In this document: positions 26,222-42,328 of the stretch, piece by piece | Numbering within the stretch: position 1 is the stretch's first letter | How the letters are laid out: the number at the start of each line of letters is the position of its first letter | DNA from: Candidatus Jorgensenbacteria bacterium | GTDB taxonomy: Bacteria; Patescibacteriota; Minisyncoccia; UBA6257; GWB1-50-10 | Direction of reading: 5' to 3' | Length of the DNA: 46,758 bases | NCBI GenBank assembly: GCA_011050075.1 | Contig: DRGK01000003.1 | Span: 1 to 46,758, forward strand | Notes under the pieces: generated by a model | Database searches by the model: none | What the model was told of the DNA's origin: nothing | What the model saw: only the letters and a program-made list of their open reading frames with translations | Translations under genes and position numbers: made by a program

Positions 26222-26282
26222 TTGAAGAGTTAAAGAAATTTACGTAAAATAATACGTAAAGGTTTACGTATTATTTTACGTA
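26222..26282 (+). promoter_or_regulatory. Promoter plus a 42-bp inverted-repeat operator (4x TACGTA, 12-bp period)
   Basis: TTGAAG(26222)-17-TAAAAT(26245); tacgtaaaataatacgtaaa-gg-tttacgtattattttacgta at 26241-26282. Confidence 0.8.
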
Positions 26283-26283
26283 C

Positions 26284-26460
26284 ATGTCCACACGCAAAAC
26301 AGGAAAACGAAATATTAGGAAGCTCACCAAGCTCGGCGGCCACTCAATCGGCCTCACCATCCCTATTTCCATTGTCCGCAAACTCAAATGGCGCAATAAA
26401 CAAAAGGTAACGGTCAAACAAGTCGGGAAGCGGGTGATAATAGAGGATTGGGAGAAGTAA
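26284..26460 (+). CDS. AbrB/MazE/SpoVT-like DNA-binding protein (58 aa, below the ORF-track cutoff)
   Basis: MSTRKTGKRNIRKLTKLGGHSIGLTIPISIVRKLKWRNKQKVTVKQVGKRVIIEDWEK fits the swapped-hairpin pattern; stop lies 2 nt before the radC ATG. Confidence 0.82.
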   Translation: MSTRKTGKRNIRKLTKLGGHSIGLTIPISIVRKLKWRNKQKVTVKQVGKRVIIEDWEK

Positions 26461-26462
26461 CT

Positions 26463-27134
26463 ATGCCAAAAATAAAGGATTTACCGAAAGTTGAACGACC
26501 GCGGGAAAAGCTTATTGCCAAAGGTGCCGAGAACCTCAAGGATTCGGATCTTTTGGCCATTCTGCTTCGAACAGGAAAAACCGGGAAAAATGTTATCGAA
26601 ATTGCTTCTCAAATTTTAGCCAAGCATTCCAAGAAACGGATTCTACAGATGACCTATCAAGACATGCTGAAAATAAGCGGCATTGACTCCGCCAAGGCCA
26701 CAACACTTCTTGCCGCTTTTGAGCTTTCAAAACGTGCGTTGGAAGTTAATGACACCAATTTGACGACTATTTCTACAGCTAAAGATGTTGTGGCTCAATT
26801 GACCGAGCTGCGCAATAGTAAAAAAGAGCATTTCGTTGCTCTGTATCTCAATGCCAGAGATCAACTAGTACACAAAGAAACGATTTCAATAGGAACCTTG
26901 AATGCCAATCTGGTTCATCCTCGGGAAATTTTCGAACCAGCTCTTAAATATTTGGCAGCTAACATCACTGTTGCGCATAATCATCCCTCCGGAGATCCAA
27001 AGCCGTCAGAAGACGATCTGGAGATTACGAAGAGATTGGTGAAAGCCGGCAAAATGATGGGCATTGAACTTTTGGATCATGTCATTGTTTCGAAAAATAG
27101 CCACTTTAGTTTTAAAGAGAAACAGTTAATTTAA
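26463..27134 (+). CDS. radC: RadC family JAB/MPN domain protein
   Basis: RPREKL, LLAILLRTG, VHPREIF, AHNHPSGDPKPSEDD, LLDHVIV. Confidence 0.95.
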   Translation: MPKIKDLPKVERPREKLIAKGAENLKDSDLLAILLRTGKTGKNVIEIASQILAKHSKKRILQMTYQDMLKISGIDSAKATTLLAAFELSKRALEVNDTNLTTISTAKDVVAQLTELRNSKKEHFVALYLNARDQLVHKETISIGTLNANLVHPREIFEPALKYLAANITVAHNHPSGDPKPSEDDLEITKRLVKAGKMMGIELLDHVIVSKNSHFSFKEKQLI

Positions 27135-27139
27135 ATAAC

Positions 27140-28885
27140 ATGAAGGAGCTAAGAAAACATGATTTTAATGATCCTATATCGATCAGAGAGACACTAAACT
27201 CTATTAGTACACGGCGGTATATTTTGCCTGCAATTCAGCGCGAGTTTATTTGGAGCACCGATCAAATCATCTGTTTATTCGAATCTATTATGGATAGACT
27301 CATAATAGGTTCGTTTTTGTTTTGGACAACAAATGATGATACGCTACAAAATTTTCATTTTTATCATTTTATTGAAAATTATCATAAAAAAGACAATAGG
27401 CATAATCAGCGCGCTGATGTCACTGGAGAAAAAAATTTAGTAGCGGTTCTTGATGGTCAACAACGATTAACCGCCTTGTATATTGGTTTAAAAGGGTCAT
27501 ACGCCGAAAAAATCAAACATAAGCGACGAAATAACCCGGGTGCTTATCCTGTCAAAAAGTTATACCTTAACTTATTGGACGAAGGAGCAAAGGAATCTTC
27601 TTACGAGTTCGCCTTCTTAGGGCAGCGAGAGATGACCGACAACGCCTCTCAAAAAGCTTATTGGTTTCGAGTTGGAGATATTTTAAACTTTGATAATAAG
27701 GAAGATATAAAACAATATTTGATTGAAAGAAACCTTTTTGATAATAAGTTTGCTCGTCAGGCACTGCAACGATTATGGGAAGCCGTTAACGAAGAAAAAT
27801 ACATTCATTATTTTTTGGAATCGTCCGATGATATTGAAAGGGTCCTTAAATTATTTATACGAGTAAATAGCGCTGGCACGGATCTGACTTATTCTGATAT
27901 GTTGCTTTCCGTAGCCACGGCGCAATGGAAAGGAGATGCTCGTGAAGAAATAACGCAATTCGTTGATAGTATAAATGATATTAAAGATGGATTTGATTTT
28001 AAAAAAGATTTTGTTTTAAAAAGCGCTGCAACATTAGCGGATCTCGACGTGGCGTTCCGAGTTAAAAACTTTAATAGAGAAAATGTAGAAAAAATAGAAA
28101 GCGAGTGGAGTGATATAAAATACTCTGTAGAGTTGGCAATACGTCTTATTGCTAGCTTTGGGTACTGTGAGGAAAATCTTCCTTCTGCTAACGCAGTCAT
28201 TCCAATAGCATACTACTTGAAGAAAATAGGGCATCCCGAAAGATTTATAGACTCAGGACATTTTGAAGAAGAACGGAAGCGCATTAAAAAATGGTTCACC
28301 CTTACTCTCTTAAAGAGGGTATTTAGCGGCCAGTCCGATGCTACACTTAGCTCTATTAGAAAAATATTGCAAGAAAGCGAAGAAACTTTTCCTCTTGAGA
28401 AGATAATTGAGGAGTTCAGGGGTACTAATAAAGGTCTCGAAATTACTGGGCAGGAGTTGGAGAGGATTCTGGAAACAAAGTATGGAAATGCCCTATCTTT
28501 TTCGATTCTTTCTTTAGTTTATCCGTATCTTGACTTAAGAAATAATAAATTTCACAAAGATCATATTTTTCCAAAAAAGTTTTTTAAAAAAGGAGATTTA
28601 TGGAAACTGAGATTTTCTGACGAAGATGTTGAGTTTTATATGGAAAATTATGACAAAATTGCTAACCTACAATTATTGCTTGGACCTGTGAATAACGAAA
28701 AAGGTGGTAAAGATTTTCAGGAGTGGCTTGAGGATTATAATTCTGGCGACCAAAAGAAAAAAGAGCAATTTAAGCGCGATCATCTCATTCCGCTAGATAC
28801 AGATTTAAGTTTCGAAAACTTTAGAGATTTTTTTGGAAAGCGGAGAAAACTTGTTTTTGAAAAAATATTCTCCATTCTTAATTAA
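27140..28885 (+). CDS. GmrSD-like (DUF262 + HNH/DUF1524) modification-dependent restriction protein
   Basis: PAIQREFIW, DGQQRLT and FIRVNSAG (DUF262); DHIFPK and NLQLL...N..K (HNH-like). Confidence 0.85.
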   Translation: MKELRKHDFNDPISIRETLNSISTRRYILPAIQREFIWSTDQIICLFESIMDRLIIGSFLFWTTNDDTLQNFHFYHFIENYHKKDNRHNQRADVTGEKNLVAVLDGQQRLTALYIGLKGSYAEKIKHKRRNNPGAYPVKKLYLNLLDEGAKESSYEFAFLGQREMTDNASQKAYWFRVGDILNFDNKEDIKQYLIERNLFDNKFARQALQRLWEAVNEEKYIHYFLESSDDIERVLKLFIRVNSAGTDLTYSDMLLSVATAQWKGDAREEITQFVDSINDIKDGFDFKKDFVLKSAATLADLDVAFRVKNFNRENVEKIESEWSDIKYSVELAIRLIASFGYCEENLPSANAVIPIAYYLKKIGHPERFIDSGHFEEERKRIKKWFTLTLLKRVFSGQSDATLSSIRKILQESEETFPLEKIIEEFRGTNKGLEITGQELERILETKYGNALSFSILSLVYPYLDLRNNKFHKDHIFPKKFFKKGDLWKLRFSDEDVEFYMENYDKIANLQLLLGPVNNEKGGKDFQEWLEDYNSGDQKKKEQFKRDHLIPLDTDLSFENFRDFFGKRRKLVFEKIFSILN

Positions 28886-28895
28886 GCCAAAAGTC

Positions 28896-30446
28896 ATGAG
28901 TGCTAATATAAAAAATTTAGAAAATAGATTGTGGGAGGCGGCGGATCATATGCGCGCCAATTCTCCGTTGCGTCTTAATGAATTCGCTGAGCCGGTTTTG
29001 GGTTTGATTTTTCTCAAATTTGCAGGCGTAAAACATTCGAAAACCGAAAAAGAGTTAGCCGAAAAGAGAAAAAATAAAGCTAAAAAACTTGGTGGTGCTT
29101 CGGTTTCGCGTGAGCGGCCAGTTTCTTCCGCGGATTATCATGCGCGCGGCACACTCTTTATTCCCGAAAAAGCTCGGTTTTCATATCTTATAGAACTACC
29201 GGAGGGAACGGATATGGGGAGAGCTGTAAATGATGCAATGAAAGGAATCGAAGCCGAAAATAAAGAGCTTGCCGGCATTCTCCCTAAGACATTTCAAAAG
29301 CTGGACAATCGATCCATCATTACGCTTCTCAAAAACTTTAATCAGATTCCAGACGACATTGAAGGGGACGCGTTCGGTAAAATTTATGAATACTTCCTTG
29401 GTAAGTTTGCGCTTGCGGATGGCACTCGCGGAGGCGAGTTTTTCACACCGACAAGCATTGTTAAACTTATCGTGGAAATTATCGAGCCGTATCAAGGCAG
29501 GATTTATGACCCTGCCTGCGGTTCCGGCGGAATGTTTGTGCAGTCGCACGAATTCGTAAAACGGCATCTTGAAAATGGGCAAAAGACAAGAGCTTCGCGT
29601 GAGATCGCTATTTATGGACAAGAAAAAACAGATCAAACTGTTCGCATCGCAAAAATGAACCTTGCAATCCACGGTCTTTCAGGAGATATCCGCGAAGGGA
29701 ATACCTATTATGAGGATAGCCATAAGAGTATTGGAAAATTTGACTTCACTATGGCTAATCCTCCTTTTAATGTGAAAGGAATTGATAAGGAACGTATTAA
29801 GGACGATCCACGGTTTTCGTACGGTATACCCAGAGCGGATAACGGTAATTATCTTTGGATTCAAATCTTTTTAAATTCGCTCAATGAAAAAGGGCGCACA
29901 GGATTTGTTATGTCAAACGCGGCTGGCGACGCCGGTCATAGTGAAAAAGAAATTCGCCAAAAGCTCATTGAAGATGGTTTTGTAGATGTAATGATCGCAG
30001 TGGGTCCGAATATGTTTTATAATGTTGCGCTCTCGGTAACGCTTTGGTTTTTGGATAGGGGTAAGAAGAGGACAAACCGTAAGAACAAGATTCTTTTTAT
30101 TGACGCACGCAATATTTATACGCAGATTGACCGCGCCCATCGCGACTGGACCGACGAGCAGATAGAGCAGATTACAAGCATTGTGAGGAGCTACCGTAGT
30201 GAGAACGGAAAGAAGTACAAAGACATAAAAGGCCTATGCAAGGTAGCGACAATTGATGAAGTAAAGAAGTCCGGCTATTCACTCAACCCCGGCCGATATA
30301 TTGGCGTTGCTGACAATGGAAATGGAGACGACGGTAATTTTGGAGAGAAAGTTAAAAATCTTCACAGCGAATTTAAAGATCTGACTGACGAGGCGCATAA
30401 ATTAGAAAAGAAGGTTTTTGAGAATTTAAAGAAGTTGGATTTTTAA
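28896..30446 (+). CDS. hsdM: Type I RM methyltransferase subunit
   Basis: LWEAADHMR, GEFFTP, YDPACGSGGM and NPPF motifs. Start is ATG 28896. Confidence 0.95.
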   Translation: MSANIKNLENRLWEAADHMRANSPLRLNEFAEPVLGLIFLKFAGVKHSKTEKELAEKRKNKAKKLGGASVSRERPVSSADYHARGTLFIPEKARFSYLIELPEGTDMGRAVNDAMKGIEAENKELAGILPKTFQKLDNRSIITLLKNFNQIPDDIEGDAFGKIYEYFLGKFALADGTRGGEFFTPTSIVKLIVEIIEPYQGRIYDPACGSGGMFVQSHEFVKRHLENGQKTRASREIAIYGQEKTDQTVRIAKMNLAIHGLSGDIREGNTYYEDSHKSIGKFDFTMANPPFNVKGIDKERIKDDPRFSYGIPRADNGNYLWIQIFLNSLNEKGRTGFVMSNAAGDAGHSEKEIRQKLIEDGFVDVMIAVGPNMFYNVALSVTLWFLDRGKKRTNRKNKILFIDARNIYTQIDRAHRDWTDEQIEQITSIVRSYRSENGKKYKDIKGLCKVATIDEVKKSGYSLNPGRYIGVADNGNGDDGNFGEKVKNLHSEFKDLTDEAHKLEKKVFENLKKLDF

Positions 30447-30448
30447 TT

Positions 30449-30892
30449 ATGGATTATCTAAAGCGACAATTTAAATTATGGAAATTTGTCCAAATCTTAA
30501 AGGAAATTTTGAATGATTTAACCCTGGCAACTTATAAACTGCAGCGCCGGTCTTTTTATACGAGAATTAAGGATTATTATTTTTCTAGAGAAAATCCTCT
30601 TGAAGATAAAGAAAATAAAATGACTTTCCCTGTCGCCACAAAGCAATTTAAAGACGCCATTCCTAATGGACATAACCTGGACTCAATGAAACGCAACCTC
30701 GACTTTTTACAAAGAGAATTTGGAGATTATTTTGATCAACTTGTACAAGAGGGTGTGTTAGTGTCGGATAATGACTATCCACCGAGTTATTCCTTGAATC
30801 ATAATTCTCCAAAAGTGTATTGGGTTTTAGGCGTAATGAGTACAGCTGCTTTAATCTGGGGTATTGTGAAAATTTTTGTAAGTACAGAATAA
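30449..30892 (+). CDS. Hypothetical 147-aa protein with a C-terminal TM helix
   Basis: Starts 2 nt after the hsdM stop; TAATG overlap with hsdS; hydrophobic tail VYWVLGVMSTAALIWGIVKIF. Confidence 0.7.
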   Translation: MDYLKRQFKLWKFVQILKEILNDLTLATYKLQRRSFYTRIKDYYFSRENPLEDKENKMTFPVATKQFKDAIPNGHNLDSMKRNLDFLQREFGDYFDQLVQEGVLVSDNDYPPSYSLNHNSPKVYWVLGVMSTAALIWGIVKIFVSTE

Positions 30893-32136
30893 TGCCAAAA
30901 ACAAAATCACAACCGGAAAATTGGCGGAGGGTAAGGTTGGGAGAAGTTATTTTTATCAACCCTGATTCTATTGGTAAAGATTTTTCTTTCCAACAGATTT
31001 TGTATACAGATATATCCTCCGTGGGGGAAGGAACTGCAGAGGATCCGGTAGAGTTACATCTTTCCGAAGCCCCTAGCCGTGCTCGTAGATTGATTAAGAG
31101 TGAAGATACGATTTTATCAACAGTTCGTCCAAATCGTCGCTCATTTCTATACATTAAAAATCCCGAGAAAAATCGTTTAGTTTCTACTGGTTTTGCCGTG
31201 CTTCGAGCTAGTGATCAGATTGATTCAAGGTTTTTGTATTATTTCATTTCGAATCAATCATTTACGGACTACTTATCATTACACGCAAAAGGAGCCACTT
31301 ATCCGGCTGTTGACGCAGATATAATTACTGGCGCTGATATTTCTCTTCCGGAATTAAATGAACAAAAAAAGATTAGCTATGTTCTCTCAACCTACGACAA
31401 TCTTATAGAAAATAACACGAAGCGGATTAAGATTTTGGAAAAAATGGCGCAGGCGATGTATAAGGAGTGGTTTGTATACTTCCGTTTTCCCGGCCATGAA
31501 AAAGTAAAAATGGTTGATAGCAAAACGGATTTAGGCGAGATTCCGGAAGGGTGGGAAGTGAAAAAGCTACCGGAAGTTTTTGATTTTCTTGAGGGTCCGG
31601 GTATTAGAAATTGGCAATATACCCCTACCGGCTGTCCATTTATAAATATTCGGCTTATTCAAAATAATGACATAAATATAAACTCAGCAAACTTTATTTC
31701 CGAGGAAGAGGCGAATGGGAAATACAAACACTTTCAACTGCAAGAACGAGATATGGTTGTATCAACATCGGGAACACTTGGCCGATCTGCGATTGTCAGA
31801 AAAGAACACTTGCCGCTTATACTCAATACATCGGTGATAAGATTTAGGCCGATAGATGGGCGGAGCTATGCTTTTATGTACCAATTTTTAAACGCAGATT
31901 ATTTTCAAAACAAGATATTAAGTATGGCTTCTGGAAGCGCGCAGCCAAATTTTGGCCCTATGCATTTAAAACAGATCGAATTACTTGTACCAAGTCGGAA
32001 TGTATTGAATGCATTTAATAATTTAGTTGGTCCAATATATGGCGGAATGATAGTTTATTTTGCGGAGAATCAAAGATTACGCCAAGCCCGAGATTTGCTT
32101 TTGCCAAAATTAGTAGGTGGAGAAATTAGAATATAG
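30892..32136 (+). CDS. hsdS: Type I RM specificity subunit
   Basis: Two TRDs; LPELNEQKKI, YKEWFVYFRFPG, LGEIPEGW, RDLLLPKL..GEI. Confidence 0.93.
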   Translation: MPKTKSQPENWRRVRLGEVIFINPDSIGKDFSFQQILYTDISSVGEGTAEDPVELHLSEAPSRARRLIKSEDTILSTVRPNRRSFLYIKNPEKNRLVSTGFAVLRASDQIDSRFLYYFISNQSFTDYLSLHAKGATYPAVDADIITGADISLPELNEQKKISYVLSTYDNLIENNTKRIKILEKMAQAMYKEWFVYFRFPGHEKVKMVDSKTDLGEIPEGWEVKKLPEVFDFLEGPGIRNWQYTPTGCPFINIRLIQNNDININSANFISEEEANGKYKHFQLQERDMVVSTSGTLGRSAIVRKEHLPLILNTSVIRFRPIDGRSYAFMYQFLNADYFQNKILSMASGSAQPNFGPMHLKQIELLVPSRNVLNAFNNLVGPIYGGMIVYFAENQRLRQARDLLLPKLVGGEIRI

Positions 32137-32141
32137 TTTTT

Positions 32142-33494
32142 ATGGATAACGAATATTATATCAAATATATCGAGTCTAACTTATACAAAGTAAGTGCATT
32201 TATTGCCGGTATTGTTTTTATCCTCGTGTTGTCTGCTAGTATTGATTCGTGGTTAGAGAAGTTAATTATAAATACACAAATAAGATTTTCTATATACGGT
32301 GCGACTCTTCTTATTTGGACCTGTTTTTGGCTATTTTATAAATATAGATTGCCAAGAAATAAAAAAGGTAAGGTTGGTATTGTTGTGGCTATCCACGCAG
32401 AGACAAACAACGAAGAAATCAGGCTAAAAAATGATTTTATTTCAAAACTAAAAGAGAATATTAATAAAGAGAAATGCGGCGAAGTTATAAATATTATCGT
32501 TCTGAAAAATCATTTTTCGGAGAAACTCGACGATATAGGCAAGGGTTTAAGATTACACAAAAATATAAAGGGACATTTTTATGTTTATGGCCAAGTGAAA
32601 AGAAGAAGTGACGGCGAGAAGAAATACTTTCTAAAACTAGAGGGGTTGGTTGCACATCGCCCTATTAATATCCGCACCCAAGACTTTTTGAAGAAGGAGT
32701 TCGTAAGCATCCTACCGAAACAGATATCGTTTTTTGAAACTTTTGAGTTTAAGGGTTTTGAATTTACTGCTGATATTGTTTATCTTGCGGCACGATACAT
32801 CACAGGAATCGCTGCTTATTTATCGGGGGATCCGATTTTAGCTCATGAATTTCATTCTAATCTTCAGGGAGAATTTAATAAATTCCAGCCACTCCCTCCC
32901 CACTTACAGGTGATAAAGAATAAAATACCCGCACTATTATCTGACGAAGAATTAATTATTGCCCGGCATTATTATTTCAGAAATGAAGCTGGAAACTTAA
33001 AAGAATGGCTTGATAAATCTTTAAAATCTAATCCGAATAATTACGGTGGATGGGTGCTCAAGGCAATAGTAGATTTTCTGCCGACGCTTGACAACAATCC
33101 GGACACTGCTCTGGAAAGCATCAAGAGGGCTCGGAGGTATGCCAGCGCTACTCATGAATGGAGATATAGCCGAGCGTTTTTGTATTTCTGGGTAGAAAAT
33201 TATATAGAAGCTCTTCGTGATTGCGAGAATCTTAAAAACAAATCTTATCATAGTGAAGACATTACTATTAAAGAGGTGGAAGATTTTAATCTACAATTGC
33301 TAAAAGAAAATCCTGGTAAAATCCAGTTATATTTTTGGCTTGGTTACATTAACCTTATCAAAAAGAGAAATTTACCACTGGCTTATAAATACTTTAGTAA
33401 ATTTGAAGAAAAAGCAGATCAAACAATGGATTTACTAAAACAAAAGTCAAACGTTTATCTCTCGCAGATAAAAAGTGAGATGAAATTAAAGTAA
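32142..33494 (+). CDS. Hypothetical membrane protein with 2 N-terminal TMs and TPR-like C-terminal helices
   Basis: 450-aa AT-rich ORF with 5-nt and 7-nt gaps to hsdS and hsdR; NPxN/YFWLGYI-type TPR-like repeats. Confidence 0.72.
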   Translation: MDNEYYIKYIESNLYKVSAFIAGIVFILVLSASIDSWLEKLIINTQIRFSIYGATLLIWTCFWLFYKYRLPRNKKGKVGIVVAIHAETNNEEIRLKNDFISKLKENINKEKCGEVINIIVLKNHFSEKLDDIGKGLRLHKNIKGHFYVYGQVKRRSDGEKKYFLKLEGLVAHRPINIRTQDFLKKEFVSILPKQISFFETFEFKGFEFTADIVYLAARYITGIAAYLSGDPILAHEFHSNLQGEFNKFQPLPPHLQVIKNKIPALLSDEELIIARHYYFRNEAGNLKEWLDKSLKSNPNNYGGWVLKAIVDFLPTLDNNPDTALESIKRARRYASATHEWRYSRAFLYFWVENYIEALRDCENLKNKSYHSEDITIKEVEDFNLQLLKENPGKIQLYFWLGYINLIKKRNLPLAYKYFSKFEEKADQTMDLLKQKSNVYLSQIKSEMKLK

Positions 33495-33501
33495 GATTTT
33501 C

Positions 33502-36500
33502 ATGAACCCATTTTCGGAAGACAAGTTAATTGAGCAAACTGCCGTCAAGATTTTTGGCGGGCTTTGGGGCGCCGAAAATTTTGCCAATGCATATTCAGGC
33601 GAAATGGACGTAGAATTTGGGCGTGAGAATCCGGGAGAAGTGGTGCTGATGAATTATCTCAAAATTGCCTTGGTGAAACTCAATCCTGATGTATCTACCG
33701 AAGCGTTGAATCTTGCGATTGACGAGATTATCAAAGACCGCTCGGCAATGAGTATGGTGAATGCAAACCACGAGGTATGGCAACTGCTTAAAGATGGCGT
33801 AAAGGTTGAGACGGAAAATGAAAAAGGTGAACAGCAAACTGAGACGGTAAAAGTTATTGATTTTGAAAATCCGAAAGAAAATCACTTTATGCTTGTTTCC
33901 CAGTTTTGGATAACAGGCGAGCTGCATAAACGCCGCCCCGATCTGATCGGATTTGTGAATGGTATCCCGCTTGTATTGGTGGAACTGAAGGCATCACACA
34001 AAAATCTTCGTAATGCCTACAGCCAGAATATCCGGGATTACAAAGACACGATTCCACAGCTCTTTTGGTATAACGCCTTCATTATTATTTCCAACGGCAT
34101 TGAAAGCAAAGTTGGTACTATTACTAGCGCGTACGAACATTTCAACGAGTGGAAGAAAATAGATGATGAAAAAGAAGTTGGAAAAGTGAGCTTGGAAACG
34201 GTAATTAAAGGCACCTGCGAGCCGACGCGGCTATTGGATATTGTTGAAAATTTTATTCTTTTTGATGACTCCCGCGGCGAGCGCACTAAAGCGATTTCTC
34301 GATATTTTCAATATTTTGGAGTGAACCGCGCCTTTGAACAAGTGCAAAATCGAGATAAAAATAAGGGCCGGCTTGGTGTTTTTTGGCACACACAAGGATC
34401 CGGCAAATCATATTCAATGGTCTTTTTGTCTCAAAAAGTGTTCCGCAAATTAACCGGGAACTTCACTTTTGTCGTGGTTACAGACCGCAAAGAGCTTGAT
34501 AGGCAGATATACAAGACATTCGCCGCTTGTGGCGCAGTGTATGAGGACGAAGTGCATGCCGATTCTGTAGAGCATCTTCAGCAGTTGCTTAAAGAAGATC
34601 ACCGCCATGTTTTTACGCTTATCCATAAATTTGCCGAGCCGAAAGAGCTATCTAACAGAAATAATGTGATTGTAATGGCTGACGAAGCGCATCGTACGCA
34701 ATATGACCGCATGGCGTCCAATATGCGCATTGCCCTACCAAAAGCGTCATTTATCGGTTTTACCGGTACGCCCTTAATGGTTGGTGGAGAAGAGAAAACT
34801 CGAGAAGCTTTCGGTGATTATATCTCAACATACAACTTCGCACAGTCAGTAAAGGACGGAGCTACAGTTCCACTTTATTACGAAAATCGTGTTCCAAAAC
34901 TTAAGAACGTCAATCCTGATATTCAGAAAGATTTGGAGCGGGTAATGAATTTTTACGATCTTGCGCCGGAAGAAGAGGAAAAACTGGAACAAGAATTTTC
35001 AACTTTTTACCACCTGATCACTCGCGAAGATCGCTTGAATAAAGTCGCGGAGGATATCGTCACACACTTCACTGCTCGGGGGTATAACGGAAAAGCAATG
35101 GTTGTTTCTATTGATAAGAAAACGACCATTCGAATGCATGCCAAAGTCAAAGAACAAATGCAACGCCATTTGGCAAAGTTGAACATCACTCTATCTAAAG
35201 CAGCAGACGAACATGAGAAAGAAAAGATTCAACAAACAATAGAGCAATACGAAGGAATTGACATGGCAGTAGTGGTAAGCCAAGGCCAGAATGAAATCGC
35301 CGACATGGAAGAGTTTGAAATTGATATGCGGCCGCTTAGAGCTCGTATGCAAAATGAAGATTTGGAAACGAAATTTAAAGACCCAGACAGCAACCTGCGC
35401 ATTGTCTTTGTTTGCGCAATGTGGATTACCGGTTTTGATGTTCTTAATCTTTCAACGTTATATCTTGATAAACCGCTTAAGAACCACACGCTCATGCAGA
35501 CCATCGCCCGCGCCAATCGAGTATATCCGGGCAAAACAAACGGCCTTATTGTTGACTACATCGGCGTATTTAGAAACATTCAAAGAGCTCTCGCGATTTA
35601 CGCTACTCCGGAAAGCGGCGCGTCAATTGACGACATTATTAAAGAAAAAGAAGAACTTGTTGAGTTGTTGGTTTCAACTACCACACAGACGAGAGGATTC
35701 TTAAAAAAGCTTGATCTTGATGTTGATGAATTACTGAAAGCAAAGGACACAGAAAAGATACGCCTTGTTGATGTATTTACGAATCGTATTTTGCAGGATG
35801 AACAGACGAAAATGAGATATCTAGATCTTGCATCAGATGCTTATCAACTTTATAAAGCCGTACTACCCGCGCCCAAAGCGGAAGATTATTACCAAGAAGT
35901 TACGGCTTTTAAAGTTATTGCCTCTCGCATCAAAGAGGTTATTGAGGAAGAGGCCGATGTTAGTCAAGTGAAAAAAGACCTTGAAGACTTACTTGATCGT
36001 TCTATCAAGGCGGGTGAATTTGTCATTAAAGCGCCAAAACTAAAAGATCTAAGTCAGATTGATTTTGAGGCGTTGCGAAAGTTTTTTGATGATACGGATA
36101 ATAAAAATATTGCCGCTGAAAGTTTAAGCGCCGAACTTGAAGAAAAAATCAAAGAAATGGCGCGGAAAAATAAACTGCGCAAACATTTTCTTGATCGCCT
36201 TAATTCATTGATTCGAGAATATAATTCAGGGTCTCGCGACCTCGACTCATTTTTTGACGAGCTTCTCGTTCTAGCAAAAGAATTAAGCGAGGAGGACGTA
36301 CGAGCGATAAAAGAAAATCTCACGGAGGAGGAGTTGGCGATCTTTGACCTTCTCGTGAAAGAAAATCTTAACCCTAATGAAGTGGAGAAAGTGAAAAAAG
36401 TCGCGCATGAGCTGATAACCAAACTGAAAAAGGAAAAGTTTGTCTTGGATTGGAAGCGCAAAGAAGAAACACGCGCTGATGTGAAAATAACAATTCGTGA

Positions 36501-36627
36501 TACATTGTACGACAACTTACCCGAGCCGGCATACTCTAAAAAGGACTGCGAAGACCGAACTCAAAAGGTTTATTTCCATATCTACGACAGTTATGTGGAT
36601 GCGGAAATAAATGTTTATACGCGATAA
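33502..36627 (+). CDS. hsdR: Type I RM restriction subunit
   Basis: RPDLIGFVNGIPLVLVELK nuclease motif, HTQGSGKS, DEAHR, FTGTP, QTIARANR. Confidence 0.96.
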   Translation: MNPFSEDKLIEQTAVKIFGGLWGAENFANAYSGEMDVEFGRENPGEVVLMNYLKIALVKLNPDVSTEALNLAIDEIIKDRSAMSMVNANHEVWQLLKDGVKVETENEKGEQQTETVKVIDFENPKENHFMLVSQFWITGELHKRRPDLIGFVNGIPLVLVELKASHKNLRNAYSQNIRDYKDTIPQLFWYNAFIIISNGIESKVGTITSAYEHFNEWKKIDDEKEVGKVSLETVIKGTCEPTRLLDIVENFILFDDSRGERTKAISRYFQYFGVNRAFEQVQNRDKNKGRLGVFWHTQGSGKSYSMVFLSQKVFRKLTGNFTFVVVTDRKELDRQIYKTFAACGAVYEDEVHADSVEHLQQLLKEDHRHVFTLIHKFAEPKELSNRNNVIVMADEAHRTQYDRMASNMRIALPKASFIGFTGTPLMVGGEEKTREAFGDYISTYNFAQSVKDGATVPLYYENRVPKLKNVNPDIQKDLERVMNFYDLAPEEEEKLEQEFSTFYHLITREDRLNKVAEDIVTHFTARGYNGKAMVVSIDKKTTIRMHAKVKEQMQRHLAKLNITLSKAADEHEKEKIQQTIEQYEGIDMAVVVSQGQNEIADMEEFEIDMRPLRARMQNEDLETKFKDPDSNLRIVFVCAMWITGFDVLNLSTLYLDKPLKNHTLMQTIARANRVYPGKTNGLIVDYIGVFRNIQRALAIYATPESGASIDDIIKEKEELVELLVSTTTQTRGFLKKLDLDVDELLKAKDTEKIRLVDVFTNRILQDEQTKMRYLDLASDAYQLYKAVLPAPKAEDYYQEVTAFKVIASRIKEVIEEEADVSQVKKDLEDLLDRSIKAGEFVIKAPKLKDLSQIDFEALRKFFDDTDNKNIAAESLSAELEEKIKEMARKNKLRKHFLDRLNSLIREYNSGSRDLDSFFDELLVLAKELSEEDVRAIKENLTEEELAIFDLLVKENLNPNEVEKVKKVAHELITKLKKEKFVLDWKRKEETRADVKITIRDTLYDNLPEPAYSKKDCEDRTQKVYFHIYDSYVDAEINVYTR

Positions 36628-36787: not shown

Positions 36788-37444
36788 ATGAAGAGGAAAT
36801 TGCTCATATATCTCTTGTTTTTCTCTGCTATAACACTAGTCGGAATTGTTTTATTCAGACTCTTTCAGCTTGAGCAGATAATATTTATTAAAGGATTTAC
36901 GCTTGGCGAAACAATTACCGTTGTAATCTTAATCATTGGTCTGTTGATAGGAATGGAAGAAGCAGAAAATGCTTTAAGGCCGTATGTTGATGTTGGTGTT
37001 ATATTCCACAAAGGAGTCAAGAAAACTCGCTTTCAATTTCTCCAAAAATCTAAGATACCAGCTCTTGTTTGGTTAGATATAAGATTGAGAATAAATGGGC
37101 GTGATATAGATTCAAATGAAAGAAAATGGTGGTTGGAAGATAAGCGATTATGGGGTGTAAAACCATGGGTTGTTCGATTTGATAATCGTGCAACATCTGC
37201 TTATGCTCTAAAAAAGGTAACAAACGCTATTATGGAAACAGAAAGCGGTGAGGCTGATTTATTTATTAAAATTTCCGTTGCCCCCATTTTTAGAAAAAAG
37301 GCGCGTTTTTATTACGAAGAAAAACATTATGAATTTAATAAAGACAAAGACAATCCTAGGTGGATAGAGACTAGTTGGGGTATAGAAGATAGATTACATC
37401 CTGGATTTAAGTTTTCAAAAGAAGACAGTTCTCACGATGAGTAG
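36788..37444 (+). CDS. Hypothetical membrane protein (2 N-terminal TMs + soluble domain)
   Basis: 218-aa ORF; TACACT -10 lies 7 nt before the ATG. Confidence 0.72.
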   Translation: MKRKLLIYLLFFSAITLVGIVLFRLFQLEQIIFIKGFTLGETITVVILIIGLLIGMEEAENALRPYVDVGVIFHKGVKKTRFQFLQKSKIPALVWLDIRLRINGRDIDSNERKWWLEDKRLWGVKPWVVRFDNRATSAYALKKVTNAIMETESGEADLFIKISVAPIFRKKARFYYEEKHYEFNKDKDNPRWIETSWGIEDRLHPGFKFSKEDSSHDE

Positions 37445-37663: not shown

Positions 37664-38275
37664 ATGAAAAACTTTTTAAACACAAAAACAATCATAGGAA
37701 GCCTAGTAGTAGGTCTCATAGGAAGTGCGTTATGGGAAAATCTATTTAGAGACCTCCTAAATCTTGGAGGAAAAACGTTGTTAACTATATCTACTCTTGG
37801 ACTCGATAAGTACAAGGACAATATATATATGAGTATTGCCCAAGGTTTTTATGAGCGAGTGAGTATCCAAATACTGTCCCTAGGGTTAGGGGTACTTTTT
37901 GGAATTGCACTTGGGACTATAATAATCACATTCAAGATTAATAAAAAAGATGAGAAATCCAAGGATTTAAAAATAAAGAAATGGTTAAGAGGTCACAAAC
38001 GTTTTGTTAAAATCGGATTTCTTATCTATACGATTTTTGTAATGGGTATCACAGTTCTTAGTCTTGCTGAAATCACTTATATAAACAAATCAATAGCTTA
38101 TTATAGACAACTTGAGAGTATTGCGGCTCCATATATTACGTCCGACCAGGAAAAGATATTCAACTCTAGATTTTCCCAGATTAAGAATCGAGAAGGTTAT
38201 ACTAAATTGATCAATGAACTTTCTGTGATTATTGACGAAGCAGGACAGACGGTGGTGCCAGCATTCATTTTCTAA
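37664..38275 (+). CDS. Hypothetical membrane protein (about 3 TMs)
   Basis: 203-aa AT-rich ORF with three hydrophobic segments. Confidence 0.72.
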   Translation: MKNFLNTKTIIGSLVVGLIGSALWENLFRDLLNLGGKTLLTISTLGLDKYKDNIYMSIAQGFYERVSIQILSLGLGVLFGIALGTIIITFKINKKDEKSKDLKIKKWLRGHKRFVKIGFLIYTIFVMGITVLSLAEITYINKSIAYYRQLESIAAPYITSDQEKIFNSRFSQIKNREGYTKLINELSVIIDEAGQTVVPAFIF

Positions 38276-38450: not shown

Positions 38451-40433
38451 ATGTATATAGAAAAGGTCAGAATATCAAATTTTCGCTGTTTCGGTCCTAC
38501 GCCGGAAACGATTGCTTTTGATCCTAGTATTACAGCTTTTATTGGAACCAACGGCACTGGGAAAACGGCAGTTATGCAGGCACTTTTACGTCTTTTTGGC
38601 GTGACGTATGAACAACGTCGTCTCAGGCGGCAGGATTTTCACGTACCTCTTGATGAGACAACTTCTCCGAGTGAGCGGATGCTTTTTATTGAAGTAGTTC
38701 TTGCTTTTCCTGAGTTAGATGCAAACGATCCTGTAGCAAAGGCCACGGTCCCTGAGTTTTTCAACCACATGGCGACAGACGATCGTGGTCATCTTAAATG
38801 CAGGCTGCATTTGAAATCAACGTGGACTGATGACGGCTCGATAGAGGGGGCAACTGAGCAAAGGCTGTGGGCGGTTACGACACTATCAGATGATTTTGAC
38901 GAAGAAAAAGATTGCCATGAAGTGAGTATATCGAACCGTAGTCAAGTTCAAATAATTTATGTACCTGCTGTCCGAGACGGTATCTCACAAGTGACTGCGT
39001 TTCTGAAGGGGCGTCTCTGGAAAGCCATCACCTGGTCAAATGAACTACGGGAGATGCTTGGTGATACAGGAGAAATACTCAACAAAAAGTTTCGTTCCGA
39101 GCCAGGAGTCGCCTCGATCACTGCGACGCTTAAGACACGCTGGCAGGAAATCCATTTTGCTGGTACAGACGCCGAACCGCTCTTTAGACCGATCGATTTG
39201 CAACTCGAAGAATTCATAAAAAAGGTTGATGTAGTGTTTCGCTCTGATGAGGCGGGAAAAGATCGAAATATGGATGACCTTAGTGATGGTCAGAGGTCGT
39301 TGTTCCATCTCGCAATGACTGCTGCAACATTGGATGTTGAAGACAAAATAGTATCCGGATCTGTAGGAGATGGCTTTCAAACCGATGGGATTGTATTGCC
39401 AGCGCTTACGGTAATTGCAGTTGAAGAACCTGAGAACAATCTAGCCCCGTTTTACCTGTCAAGAATCATTCGTCAAATCAAAGACGTTACAAAAAGTTCT
39501 CGTGCACAAGCATTGATCGCCAGTCACTCATCGAGTATTTTGGCACGAATTGATCCTTCAATGATTCGACATTTTCAGCTCTTGCGAAAAGACAGGACAG
39601 CCAAAATCAAAGGAATCCTAATTCCGGATGGTGAAGATGATGCAGCAAAATTTATCCGGGAAGCTGTACGAACTTATCCTGAGATATACTTTGCACGATT
39701 TGTAATACTTGGAGAGGGAAGCTCAGAGGAGGTCATAATTCCTCGTTTGGCAGAAGCAATGAATATGCATATCGACAGATCCTTCGTTGCAGTCGTACCT
39801 TTAGGCGGACGTCACGTTAACCACTTGTGGCGATTGCTTTCTGATTTGAAAATTCCCTATGCGACGTTATTGGATCTCGACACCGGACGTGCTGGTGGTG
39901 GTTGGGGAAGGATAAAAACAGTATGTTCTGAGTTGATAAAAAATGGCGCTGATCCTAAAGCAATTTTTGGTGATGAATTATTGCCCGCTGGAGCCGATGC
40001 AAGCCTCGACTCTTTTGTAGGGAGGAAGATTGATGAATCCTTGTCCGAGTGGGTCAAGAACTTGAGAAAATTTAATGTCTTTTTCTGTGCGCCACTAGAT
40101 ATTGATTGGACCATGCTTTCTGCTTTCCCAGAGGCATACCAACATCTTGAAACGGGCAATAGAGGACCCGTTATGACGATTGATGGCAAAATGGCTGTTC
40201 TCGGTGACGCTGGCGATCCATTACCATACGGCGCTGACGATGAAGATATGTTTCGTTGGTATCGCTATTTATTTCTCGGACGTAGCAAACCGAATGCACA
40301 CTTGCGTATACTAAGCCGCTTAGATAACAAAGCGATTACGGCGAACGCACCAGAAGAACTTATAGCATTGCTCGAACACGTAAATGCGAATATTTTCCCA
40401 AAAATTGCTGAAGTTAAAACACCGTCCGCATGA
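38451..40433 (+). CDS. OLD-family ABC-ATPase/TOPRIM nuclease (GajA-like)
   Basis: GTNGTGKT, LSDGQRS, VEEPENNL, ASHS, TOPRIM GEGSSE and DLD. Confidence 0.9.
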   Translation: MYIEKVRISNFRCFGPTPETIAFDPSITAFIGTNGTGKTAVMQALLRLFGVTYEQRRLRRQDFHVPLDETTSPSERMLFIEVVLAFPELDANDPVAKATVPEFFNHMATDDRGHLKCRLHLKSTWTDDGSIEGATEQRLWAVTTLSDDFDEEKDCHEVSISNRSQVQIIYVPAVRDGISQVTAFLKGRLWKAITWSNELREMLGDTGEILNKKFRSEPGVASITATLKTRWQEIHFAGTDAEPLFRPIDLQLEEFIKKVDVVFRSDEAGKDRNMDDLSDGQRSLFHLAMTAATLDVEDKIVSGSVGDGFQTDGIVLPALTVIAVEEPENNLAPFYLSRIIRQIKDVTKSSRAQALIASHSSSILARIDPSMIRHFQLLRKDRTAKIKGILIPDGEDDAAKFIREAVRTYPEIYFARFVILGEGSSEEVIIPRLAEAMNMHIDRSFVAVVPLGGRHVNHLWRLLSDLKIPYATLLDLDTGRAGGGWGRIKTVCSELIKNGADPKAIFGDELLPAGADASLDSFVGRKIDESLSEWVKNLRKFNVFFCAPLDIDWTMLSAFPEAYQHLETGNRGPVMTIDGKMAVLGDAGDPLPYGADDEDMFRWYRYLFLGRSKPNAHLRILSRLDNKAITANAPEELIALLEHVNANIFPKIAEVKTPSA

Positions 40434-42328
40434 AATATACCTTGTCTGAAGCATGGCGACCGCAGGGGGTCGACAATCTTGAGGATGCAGCATGGGCCGC
40501 CCTTCGAGAGACGGGTTGCACGAGTATTATAGCGGGGCCGGGCGCCGGAAAAACGGAATTTCTTGCACAACGTGCAGCCTATTTGTTGCAGACTGGGGTT
40601 TGCCGCAAACCATCTCGAATTTTGGCAATATCTTTCAAAAAGGATGCTGCTCAAAATCTAGCAGATCGTGTACGAAAAAGATGTTCACCAGAGCTAGCGT
40701 CTCGGTTTGAATCTTTGACATTTGATGCGCTTACAAAAAGCCTTGTAGACCGATTCCTCACAGTTCTACCTCAAGAATTGCAACCGACAAAACCATATAA
40801 CGTGATATTTCCCACAAAGCCGGAGGTCCAAAGCTTTTTGGCGACGGCGCGGACTATAGCTGATAGTGCGTGGCATACTGATATCGCTCGTGTTGCTCCG
40901 TCTGGTTTTGAGTCAAATTATATCGGAGCCAAGAAGTTGGGCGTAGAATTTACGGATGCGACAAATGCAGGCGACTTTCTAGTTCATCTGTGGTTGAAAC
41001 AACACTTATCGAGACGACCCTCAGACGTATCATTCGTTATGTTTAACCGCCTTGCTGAACTACTGTTACGCGTAAGTCCTGAAATATTGCGATCACTACG
41101 CCTAACGTACCCATTTGTATTTGTCGATGAGTTTCAAGATACAACTTATGCTCAATATGATTTCCTACTTTCTGCTTTCGGAGGCGGTCAAACAATCGTT
41201 ACTGCGGTCGGAGATAATAAACAGAAAATTATGGGATGGGCCGGCGCTTTACCCGATTCGTTCCAGCAGTTTCGATCGGACTTTGCCGCTCTAGAGATAC
41301 CATTGCGATCAAATTACCGATCCTCTCCAGATCTTGTAAGGATCCAGCAAATCGTAGCACGTGCAATAGACGCGGGGGTAGCTGAAGCTGAAGCGTGCAC
41401 AGAGCAGGCAATTGAAGGGGAAGTGGCGCAAATTTGGAATTTTCCAAATAACATCACTGAAGCACAACAGATCGCTTCTTGGTTAGTTGGTGATATACAA
41501 CGTCGTGGAACATCTACGCGTGATTATGCACTACTTGTGAAGCAAACCACAAATCTCTTTGAGGATCAGCTATCCGTAGCATTGAACAAGAAAAACCTTC
41601 AGTTACGTAATGAGGATAAGCGTATAGGGAAAATAACCCTTCAGGATCTCTTAGTGGATGAATTGGTTCAAATTTCTATAGCTATTCTAAAAGTGGCAAC
41701 CCTACCTCGTGCACCCGAAGCTTGGAGTATTGCGTCTCAGGCAGTTTTACGTTTGCGCGGAATAGACCCTGATAATGATGTTGGGTGTCAAAAAACTGAA
41801 AGACAGTTGAAAGCATTTATTGATCGACTACGCGTATTTACACAAAAGACAGTTCCACACCCGAAATATGTTGGAGTAATACTTGATAATCTCATTAAGT
41901 TTCTCGATCCTCCGGCGCTTTCGCGTGCATACCTGCAATACAGTACAGGAGATAACCTCGCAATTGCAATTGAAGGACTACGTTTACACCTCACCGATTC
42001 CACAAGAAGCACATCAACGTGGACAGCTTGCCTCGATGCTTTTGAAGGTGAAAATTGTATTTCCCTGATGACGGTGCATAAAAGCAAGGGGCTCGAATAC
42101 GACACAATCATATTTGTTGGCTTAGACGATAAAACATGGTGGAGTCACACTAAGGGTAATACTGAAGGAACCGCTATATTTTTTGTTGCACTTTCCAGAG
42201 CAAAACAGCGCATTGTTTTCACATTTTGTTCCACACGTGGTCCGAGGGATTTAGTTGATGATCTGTACACACTCTTGAGAGAGGCTGGTGTTCCGGAAGT
42301 TGAATATAGTATTACACCAGATACATAA
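40430..42328 (+). CDS. UvrD/PcrA-like SF1 helicase (GajB-like)
   Basis: AGPGAGKT, VDEFQD, VGD..Q.I, NYRS, TVHKSKGLEYD and VALSRA; ATGA overlap with the OLD gene. Confidence 0.9.
   Translation: MKYTLSEAWRPQGVDNLEDAAWAALRETGCTSIIAGPGAGKTEFLAQRAAYLLQTGVCRKPSRILAISFKKDAAQNLADRVRKRCSPELASRFESLTFDALTKSLVDRFLTVLPQELQPTKPYNVIFPTKPEVQSFLATARTIADSAWHTDIARVAPSGFESNYIGAKKLGVEFTDATNAGDFLVHLWLKQHLSRRPSDVSFVMFNRLAELLLRVSPEILRSLRLTYPFVFVDEFQDTTYAQYDFLLSAFGGGQTIVTAVGDNKQKIMGWAGALPDSFQQFRSDFAALEIPLRSNYRSSPDLVRIQQIVARAIDAGVAEAEACTEQAIEGEVAQIWNFPNNITEAQQIASWLVGDIQRRGTSTRDYALLVKQTTNLFEDQLSVALNKKNLQLRNEDKRIGKITLQDLLVDELVQISIAILKVATLPRAPEAWSIASQAVLRLRGIDPDNDVGCQKTERQLKAFIDRLRVFTQKTVPHPKYVGVILDNLIKFLDPPALSRAYLQYSTGDNLAIAIEGLRLHLTDSTRSTSTWTACLDAFEGENCISLMTVHKSKGLEYDTIIFVGLDDKTWWSHTKGNTEGTAIFFVALSRAKQRIVFTFCSTRGPRDLVDDLYTLLREAGVPEVEYSITPDT

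Follow-up and report, generated by a model that had tools for sequence, protein, structure and literature searches.

A putative AbrB-fold autorepressor cassette and RadC at the head of a type I restriction-modification operon in Candidatus Jorgensenbacteria

Controller (C) proteins of restriction-modification (R-M) systems, such as C.AhdI, C.Esp1396I, C.Csp231I and C.Kpn2I, are Xre-type helix-turn-helix (HTH) proteins that act as small autoregulators, encoded at the head of the operon and with repeated boxes in their own promoter. A type I operon can also carry one: according to PMC5282649, the C-protein HsdC of Mycoplasma gallisepticum binds direct repeats, (GTGTTAN5)2, before the hsd operon. 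Here we analyze a 46,758-nt stretch of DNA from Candidatus Jorgensenbacteria (Patescibacteriota; assembly GCA_011050075.1, contig DRGK01000003.1, positions 1 to 46,758), called the window below. In the window, a gene for a 58-aa protein with a perfect inverted repeat before its start codon precedes radC, a GmrSD-like gene and a complete type I R-M system with hsdM, hsdS and hsdR (Table 1). As with HsdC, the candidate regulator is that of an hsd operon in a reduced genome.

The window's protein resembles the C-proteins in role, as had been suggested in an earlier interpretation of this DNA from its letters alone (the original prediction). An autoregulator-like gene heads the R-M operon, and boxes are repeated in its own predicted promoter. 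The proteins differ in class, as the window's protein is AbrB-like and had no match to an HTH family in Pfam. Moreover, its family is not dedicated to R-M systems, unlike C-proteins, and an activation step is not indicated. The further analogy with BrxR/CapW holds for the role, a repressor encoded at the head of a defense operon, but not for the architecture, since the 58-aa protein had no wHTH-WYL-WCX match in Pfam and has no room for a ligand-sensing domain.

By predicted fold, the closest described proteins are AbrB, Abh and SpoVT of Bacillus subtilis. Proteins of this group bind DNA as dimers or tetramers. Their N-terminal swapped-hairpin domain (1z0r, 2k1n, 1yfb, 2w1t) has the same arrangement of about 45 residues, beta-beta-alpha-beta-beta, that is predicted for the window's protein. 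The latter differs from AbrB in that it is just 58 aa long, its N-terminal arm is basic and a C-terminal multimerization domain is missing, in its score below the Pfam cut-off, and in the occurrence of its family in Patescibacteria and in metagenome-assembled genomes (MAGs) of Bacteroidales. AbrB recognizes loosely defined sites genome-wide, whereas the window's protein has a local candidate operator of short boxes phased at 12 nt. MazE and VapB antitoxins share the predicted fold class, the small size and the proposed autoregulation through operator repeats (Foldseek ranks 1-3, 5, 11, 14 and 16-17), but the window's protein is without a toxin-binding tail or a cognate toxin gene, and its family stands before diverse cargo, with copies that are often alone.

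RadC/YicR proteins (UPF0758) have the same HhH plus RadC-type JAB architecture as the RadC of the window. In passages of two papers by Iyer et al. (2011, 2017), fusions with ArdC, a DnaG-like primase and DinG/RAD3-like helicases led to the proposal that the RadC domains found in mobile elements take part in nucleic-acid processing, and RadC was linked to mobile DNA-restriction conflict (PMC3239186, PMC5512222). These passages are silent on R-M methyltransferase fusions and on R-M operon heads. RadC of the type found in the window stands on the restriction side, where it opens R-M cassettes of types I, IIG, IIS and III or is fused to their methyltransferases.

Table 1. Coordinates of features in the window, and loci in other genomes that carry the features named (positions in the window unless a locus is given; strand "." denotes no orientation)
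Feature	Position or loci	Strand	Basis
Promoter-like site, TTGAAG - 17 nt - TAAAAT	26222-26250	+	9/12 matches in promoter scan
Candidate operator, perfect 20+2+20 inverted repeat with four TACGTA boxes	26241-26282	.	Sequence, repeat search, shuffles
58-aa protein, predicted AbrB/MazE/SpoVT-fold DNA-binding protein, proposed autorepressor	26284-26460	+	Pfam, PDB profile search, AlphaFold2, Foldseek
radC, UPF0758 N-terminal HhH domain and RadC JAB domain, intact JAMM motif	26463-27134	+	Pfam, NCBIfam
GmrSD-like (DUF262), PADLOC candidate HEC-05, GC 0.35	27140-28885	+	Pfam, PADLOC
hsdM, type I methyltransferase	28896-30446	+	Pfam; PADLOC MTase_I 2.6e-198
147-aa open reading frame (ORF) between hsdM and hsdS, GC 0.34	30449-30892	+	No Pfam, NCBIfam or PADLOC match
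hsdS, specificity subunit	30892-32136	+	Pfam; PADLOC Specificity_I 7e-63
450-aa ORF between hsdS and hsdR, GC 0.34, N-terminus hydrophobic by eye	32142-33494	+	No Pfam, NCBIfam or PADLOC match
hsdR, type I restriction subunit	33502-36627	+	Pfam; PADLOC REase_I 8e-186
Two ORFs, 218 and 203 aa, between hsdR and Gabija, GC 0.34-0.35	36788-37444, 37664-38275
Gabija pair, ORFs overlapping by 4 nt, just before dnaG-rpoD-alaS	38451-42328		PADLOC GajA 2.5e-241, GajB 4e-209
TACGTA, three to five boxes at 12 nt	L018/L035, L019/L040 (two copies), L021/L084, L033, L034, L057, L068, L080, L091
TACGTA boxes at 11-nt spacing	L088
ACTGAAT-type boxes	L020/L056, L041, L044, L049, genome's own paralog
TCATGA boxes	L066, L078, L097; looser form in L077, L095
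GTTGCC...GGCAAC palindromes	L022, L025, L026, L027, L029
Type I system downstream of RadC	Window, L123, L129, L131, L145
Type IIG-like enzyme downstream of RadC	L128, L137, L139
Type III-like system downstream of RadC	L135, L138
N6_N4 methylase downstream of RadC	L132, L140
In-frame RadC::C5-methylase fusion, then HpaII endonuclease	L125 7001-8665
In-frame RadC::Dam fusions, in both cases with another Dam and an AlwI-family endonuclease next	L144 2739-4550; L147 6695-8515
Gene before RadC, AbrB-like	Window, L075
Gene before RadC, HTH_3 (Xre-type HTH)	L125, L132
Gene before RadC, MerR-type HTH	L147
Gene before RadC, DUF7695	L122
Gene before RadC, Fic	L128
Gene before RadC, Bro-N	L137

We consider it probable that the 58-aa gene and its boxes are an autorepressor cassette, and that RadC, within the same defense island, is a head gene of the R-M system and not the partner of the repressor. 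Four TACGTA boxes (26241-46, 26253-58, 26265-70 and 26277-82) follow one another at an exact phase of 12 nt in the layout ...TTGAAGAGTTAAAGAAATT TACGTA AAATAA TACGTA AAGGTT TACGTA TTATTT TACGTA C ATG. Around a central GG, the two arms (26241-26260 and 26263-26282) match as reverse complements without a mismatch, each box is a dyad by itself, and the repeat ends 1 nt upstream of the ATG at 26284. A repeat search extended the inverted repeat to 26 nt at 92% and also found a 24-nt direct repeat at 75%. The 20-mer of the operator had one match on each strand, and two matches were obtained in 0 of 100 shuffles. The four-box perfect 20+2+20 palindrome of the original prediction is therefore present on the sequence, and it does run over the predicted -10 and up to the start codon, as the TAAAAT of the promoter-like site overlaps box 1. 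The promoter scan by itself proves nothing, since its 41 sites in total were not above shuffles (33.4 +/- 6.7).

TACGTA alone is not enriched in the window (13 observed versus 7.7 +/- 2.9 expected, with at least 13 in 8 of 100 shuffles). The exact pattern TACGTA-N6-TACGTA occurs in the 526-kb genome at the operator, with three overlapping matches, and at one other site (C6:122-139). We found no other promoter-type TACGTA array in this genome, and none inside the operon. A wider TACGTA regulon was considered and rejected, the sole other phased pair lying in rRNA-like sequence with no nearby gene start. That pair adjoins sequence resembling the 3' part of 23S rRNA (G000:C6:100-420, L169) and may belong to an rRNA insertion or intron.

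The genes from the 58-aa gene to hsdR span 10,344 nt and follow each other closely, with gaps of 2 nt before radC, 5 before the GmrSD-like gene, 10 before hsdM, 2 before the 147-aa ORF, 5 before the 450-aa ORF and 7 before hsdR, while the ATG of hsdS overlaps the preceding stop codon by 1 nt. Given gaps of at most 10 nt and no further box inside the operon, the same promoter probably governs all seven following genes. The operon of about 10.3 kb in the original prediction is thus right in gene order and gaps, and its single transcript is suggested by the spacing.

Boxes before the own start codon were found throughout the protein family. A profile search of 1.84 billion representatives returned 700 clusters at an E-value of at most 1e-3 and 264 at most 1e-10; the members are mostly 53-65 aa long (among the 150 clusters listed). 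One larger protein (P0013, 226 aa) is matched by the family profile in four separate stretches, corresponding to four tandem AbrB-like domains. The gene is present in 9 of 41 relatives (the window's genome counted), with one to three copies each. Species-representative genomes were also scanned with a 6-row alignment, which gave 147 relatives; the best 80 loci were kept, and with this query they are biased towards the window's own subfamily. They come from many Patescibacteria lineages and from Bacteroidales MAGs.

A repeat array or palindrome was scored if, in the 70 nt before the ATG, some 6-mer occurred three or more times or an inverted repeat had a perfect arm of 9 nt or longer. By this criterion, 58 of the 88 distinct family members with 70 nt of upstream sequence have their own array or palindrome. 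For comparison, the remaining genes of these loci that encode 150 aa or more served as controls, and 43 of 436 scored. Distances from one copy to the next have maxima at 12 nt (39 intervals) and at 6 nt, corresponding to half-sites (40). Family-wide boxes before the own ATG support autorepression, so that the autoregulation through repeated boxes suggested by the original prediction finds good backing in the comparison.

The box type also tracks the loop between strands beta1 and beta2. Loops of the form K[LV]-G-x-x-S accompany TACGTA boxes, loops that are one residue longer (...A[GSN]GxSF) accompany ACTGA and TCATGA boxes, and IQK..RSYY accompanies GTTGCC palindromes. This covariation of operator and protein could reflect a specificity loop, but shared ancestry could yield the same pattern.

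The genome has a second AbrB-like gene (G000:C4:37773-37998; L003, and L031 at about 7946-8180), encoding a protein of 59 aa with 59% identity. It has its own, different perfect 20+20 palindrome, followed by TATAAT 6 nt before the ATG, and its box has no other site in the genome. The paralog is found directly after an AlwI-type R-M pair and a 222-aa ORF, and the approximately 500 nt downstream of it contain no convincing ORF. Leaderless mRNA was considered for the family and rejected as too weakly indicated: a TATAAT-like hexamer 5-9 nt before the ATG was found in 20 of 88 members versus 62 of 436 controls, and is suggestive solely for the GTTGCC subfamily and the genome's own paralog. A Shine-Dalgarno GGAG or GAGG at -18 to -5 was rare in the family (3/88) and in controls (23/436), a scarcity that is uninformative.

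Fold assignment for the 58-aa protein rests on three weak but concordant lines, and on these we accept the AbrB/MazE fold that the original prediction had named. First, MazE_antitoxin (PF04014) was the only Pfam match (E=0.0029, 18 bits, under the gathering score of 24.7), and nothing matched in NCBIfam or PADLOC. Second, a 14-sequence profile run against PDB sequences had AbrB-family proteins as all top 6 matches (E 0.023-0.086). Third, the AlphaFold2 model (pLDDT 71.3) shows strand-strand-helix-strand-strand, and its Foldseek ranks 1-17 are MazE, AbrB, SpoVT, VapB and AbrB-family 'histone-like' chains and C56 of pSSVi (best match E=0.045 with probability 0.99, nothing at E<=0.001; probabilities of 0.14-0.99 over these ranks and TM scores mostly of about 0.4-0.6). 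The protein consists of the predicted DNA-binding domain, which reaches residue 58, and a basic N-terminal arm, with little else. Its R12 is invariant across 14 aligned family sequences. Neither the alignment nor the model has a C-terminal toxin-binding extension.

What stands downstream of family members was analyzed for 82 copies in the 80 loci. A co-directional ORF starts within 200 nt in 47 cases; for the other 35 copies, the gene is isolated, the next gene is convergent, the nearest co-directional ORF starts farther away or the contig ends. According to Pfam, a DNA methyltransferase or R-M enzyme is the first or second gene in L038, L056, L065, L070 and L104; together with L075, which reaches hsdM at the third gene, R-M-leading copies amount to 6 of 47. 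Another 6 of 47 precede defense or toxin-antitoxin-like genes (L032, L040a with Fic, L040b with Hypoth_Ymh, L068 with Z1, L103 and L108). The R-M or defense-like share of the co-directional cargo is about a quarter, and the remainder includes enolase, GlmS, YchF, RNase HII, a P-type ATPase, an ABC transporter, an SDR protein and unknown small proteins. Family copies in the relatives have equally diverse cargo. The association with defense cargo in the original prediction thus stands for some copies, and the rest are followed by housekeeping or unknown genes. One member with a GTTGCC palindrome is wedged between archease and rtcB (L029 7992-8673). From these observations, and as a probable part of the preferred explanation, 26222-26460 would be a portable self-repressing cassette that plugs in before many kinds of genes.

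RadC has a different distribution. Its two domains in the window scored 145.2 bits (PF04002) and 86.8 bits (PF20582), with E-values of 1.1e-42 and 1.1e-24, both above the curated cut-offs, and the protein exceeds the cut-off of the canonical equivalog NF000642 in NCBIfam (234.6 versus 180 bits). No PADLOC model matches it. E122, H172, H174, S182 and D185 are invariant in 20 aligned RadC sequences, which confirms the JAB metallo-hydrolase motif noted in the original prediction; we take E ... HxH ... S..D as the definition of the metal-binding JAMM motif. The gene is single-copy in the genome. With the protein as query, 9 of 41 relatives gave a RadC match, and with PF04002, 27 of 151 genomes from the order did; these counts state what was found among the genomes searched and are not proof of absence elsewhere. 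With these numbers, radC was rejected as a core gene.

Of the 30 RadC matches, 25 were examined; fragments and weak matches were left out (G098:C13, G070:C88, G032:C12, G047:C1 and G090:C40). A locus was called R-M-linked if a methyltransferase or R-M gene was fused to RadC or was found within the next four co-directional genes. This was the case for 15 of the 25 loci, three of them with fusions (Table 1). The recurrence of RadC at the head of R-M methyltransferase genes, or fused to them, connects it with the R-M system rather than with the repressor. In this order, RadC is an accessory gene that recurs as the head of R-M cassettes of types I, IIG, IIS, II and III. The three fusions share a Q-G-[STA]-L-F motif in the linker after the JAB domain, which is not present in the stand-alone RadC of the window. 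Matches to N6_Mtase (PF02384) were counted as a control. Among 56 matches in the 151 genomes, 8 are within 4 kb downstream of a RadC match; based on random placement alone, one would expect about 0.07 cases (8 of the 30 RadC matches observed). Outside the order sample, the RadC gene of L124 converges on genes for a C5 methylase and a MutH-like protein, and an HhH-only RadC fragment precedes a type IIG enzyme in L127. No open-access paper or preprint that we found describes a link between RadC and R-M systems, or an AbrB-fold regulator module of R-M systems or Patescibacteria; in PMC8053105, on R-M regulation, AbrB occurs in an unrelated item of the reference list.

Other genes recur around RadC. 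Fic/DOC genes adjoin it in five loci (L122, L128, L137, L144 and L075), and Phd-type antitoxin genes follow it in L123, L131, L136 and L139. The hsdM gene after RadC in L145 (G160:C24:2211-3302) has three in-frame TGA stops, is represented by fragments in the ORF list and has probably decayed.

The closest counterpart of the window is L075 (4863-7198), where a tRNA-Ile gene is directly followed by an AbrB-like gene, RadC, Fic and the beginning of hsdM. Identity between the RadC proteins of both loci is 82% (79% over 650 nt for the radC DNA), and the first 72 nt of hsdM, at the very end of the L075 contig, are 89% identical in DNA. HEC-05 occupies the slot between radC and hsdM in the window, and the Fic gene in L075. 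The AbrB-like proteins are 51% identical, with no match in DNA and with different boxes. The two loci are thus two sightings of a single R-M cassette, in which both the inner slot and the regulator at the front can be exchanged.

The original prediction had joined the AbrB-like gene and radC into a two-gene control module for anti-phage operons, with RadC possibly acting as a sensor or repressor-cleaving partner. In a fuller form of this model, RadC would be the sensor, or a JAB protease by which the repressor is cut or disabled when DNA is damaged or a phage infects. We regard such a module as unlikely. Although the pair opens the operon with a gap of 2 nt and the order AbrB-like, RadC, type I R-M recurs in L075, a search for such pairs found a full RadC after only 2 of about 93 family copies (the window and L075), and other members have their own boxes without RadC. 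The metallo-hydrolase motif is intact, but the regulators encoded before RadC are unrelated in fold (AbrB, HTH_3, MerR-type HTH and DUF7695), and one protease would not obviously recognize all of them. As some small regulator-like gene often precedes RadC in relatives (elsewhere than in the loci of Table 1, unknown small ORFs), a 'regulator plus RadC' unit with exchangeable regulators is conceivable. However, fusions connect RadC to methyltransferases (L125, L144 and L147), and its N-terminal HhH domain alone to a Dam methylase that follows a family copy in L020/L056, and no fusion of RadC with a regulator was found among the loci examined. The identities in the comparison with L075 also argue against coupling, as RadC is far more similar than the AbrB protein before it.

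Several observations weigh against the preferred explanation of an autorepressor cassette next to an R-M-associated RadC. All fold assignments for the 58-aa protein are below the usual significance (Pfam under its cut-off, PDB E at least 0.02, Foldseek above 0.001). No clear repeat was found by the operator criterion in 30 of the 88 family members, and the box-loop covariation is confounded by common ancestry. Among the 22 RadC loci with visible context, 7 are without an R-M neighbor (L133, L134, L136, L141, L142, L143 and L146), a further three being cut by contig ends (L117, L122 and L130). The RadC loci are interrelated and the cassettes are transferred between genomes, so that the counts of R-M links overstate independence. 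Promoter-like sites are also found inside radC (26952-26981) and before hsdM (28714-28741), so that expression of the R-M genes may be independent of the promoter at the operon head. GC is 0.41-0.47 in the AbrB-like gene, radC, hsdM and hsdR and 0.34-0.38 in HEC-05, the 147-aa ORF, hsdS and the 450-aa ORF; these differences, and in particular the lower GC of HEC-05 and the two ORFs, point to a mosaic built in steps. Finally, if the whole repeat before the 58-aa gene is transcribed, it would also form a stable RNA hairpin.

This last point leads to a reading of the palindrome as mainly an RNA element, a hairpin that stops or insulates read-through from rpsL-rpsG-fusA and masks the start codon. 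The predicted fold is strong (-29 kcal/mol, z = -4.9, with an equally stable fold in 0 of 200 shuffles), the repeat lies 44 nt past the fusA stop codon, and on the 3' side its arm stops 1 nt short of the ATG. However, the hairpin is not followed by a T-run on the + strand, and homologs retain phased boxes, often three and with less perfect pairing, whatever the upstream gene. With the predicted promoter at 26222-26250, moreover, the left arm would be outside the cassette's own transcript. A predominant RNA role is improbable, then, even if roles as operator and as hairpin could coexist.

Still less credence is due to radC being an ordinary housekeeping DNA-repair gene beside an inserted R-M system. 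The canonical equivalog score, the single copy and a GC content of 0.41, near that of the genome and unlike that of HEC-05, would be in keeping with such a gene, but it is present in just 27 of the 151 genomes of the order, the closest relative is without the whole fusA-dnaG block, and 15 of the 25 loci are R-M-linked, fusions included. In a tree of 27 RadC sequences, four loci without R-M genes form one separate starred clade of longer, housekeeping-like proteins, which excludes the window's RadC; 17 of the 23 rows outside this clade are R-M-linked.

Least probable of all is a type II antitoxin of the MazE or VapB type with its toxin encoded downstream, despite the MazE and VapB names of the best Pfam and Foldseek matches, the autoregulation of antitoxins through operators and the Fic or Hypoth_Ymh genes after some family members, as the protein ends with its DNA-binding domain at residue 58 and has no toxin-binding tail, many copies are alone or convergent with the next gene, the cargo includes enolase, GlmS, YchF, RNase HII and transporters, and no toxin family was found by Pfam after the 58-aa gene (in agreement with the original prediction), RadC matching none.

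The R-M operon is part of a larger defense island. From 26.2 to 42.3 kb, roughly 16 kb including a Gabija pair lie in a variable slot between fusA and dnaG, in the gene order rpsL-rpsG-fusA, then the block, then dnaG-rpoD-alaS. The closest relative (G010), which has the most similar fusA, has one small ORF between fusA and dnaG-rpoD-alaS, and G015 has 3.4 kb of unrelated genes in this slot. Among the 18 stretches compared, 12 have a tuf-like gene after fusA, three end at contig ends (L156, L163 and L164) and one had no further match (L165). In the operon, the GmrSD-like protein matches HEC-05 over its full length (E=3.8e-208) and GmrSD_N above the cut-off (96 bits); GmrSD_C is under it (17.1 versus 23 bits). 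The 147-aa and 450-aa ORFs may be further embedded defense genes, like HEC-05. The 218- and 203-aa ORFs before the Gabija pair are membrane-like or hydrophobic by eye and had no Pfam, NCBIfam or PADLOC match. A hairpin with a 14-bp stem and a T-run (27280-27313) resembles a terminator 140 nt inside the coding sequence of HEC-05; terminator-like signals in this part of the DNA (9) did not exceed shuffles (10.2).

Together, the above observations are consistent with the following course of events for the autorepressor cassette. Dimers of the 58-aa protein would bind to the four dyad boxes and thereby silence the sigma-70-type promoter of their own gene. This head promoter probably sets the expression of the whole operon of radC, HEC-05 and the type I R-M genes. 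A cell without repressor, for example after transfer, would then see a burst of expression, followed by clamping at a low level, and the cassette would work like an R-M controller protein with a different fold. For RadC, we propose that the HhH domain targets the JAB metallo-enzyme to DNA where the methyltransferase acts as well, at establishment or replication, and that its action would help to avoid self-restriction. The full combination, with RadC as a genuine R-M accessory of ultra-small bacteria that acts with the methyltransferase against self-restriction and an AbrB-fold autorepressor that provides burst and clamp, is put forward tentatively, as a possibility that we rate well below the preferred explanation itself.

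RadC as a recurrent head gene of R-M cassettes is a more interesting result than its pairing with an AbrB-like gene. What RadC does is a question that is decades old, and its position at the head of unrelated R-M types, or its fusion to them, brings this question within reach of the bench. Patescibacteria have few recognizable transcription factors. A widespread 58-aa regulator with candidate sites that can be read from the sequence would be a first handle on gene control in these bacteria, and the family could supply compact orthogonal repressor-operator pairs. If our explanation is true, the AbrB-fold autorepressor would be a structural newcomer to the role of controller protein, and one suited to a mobile cassette.

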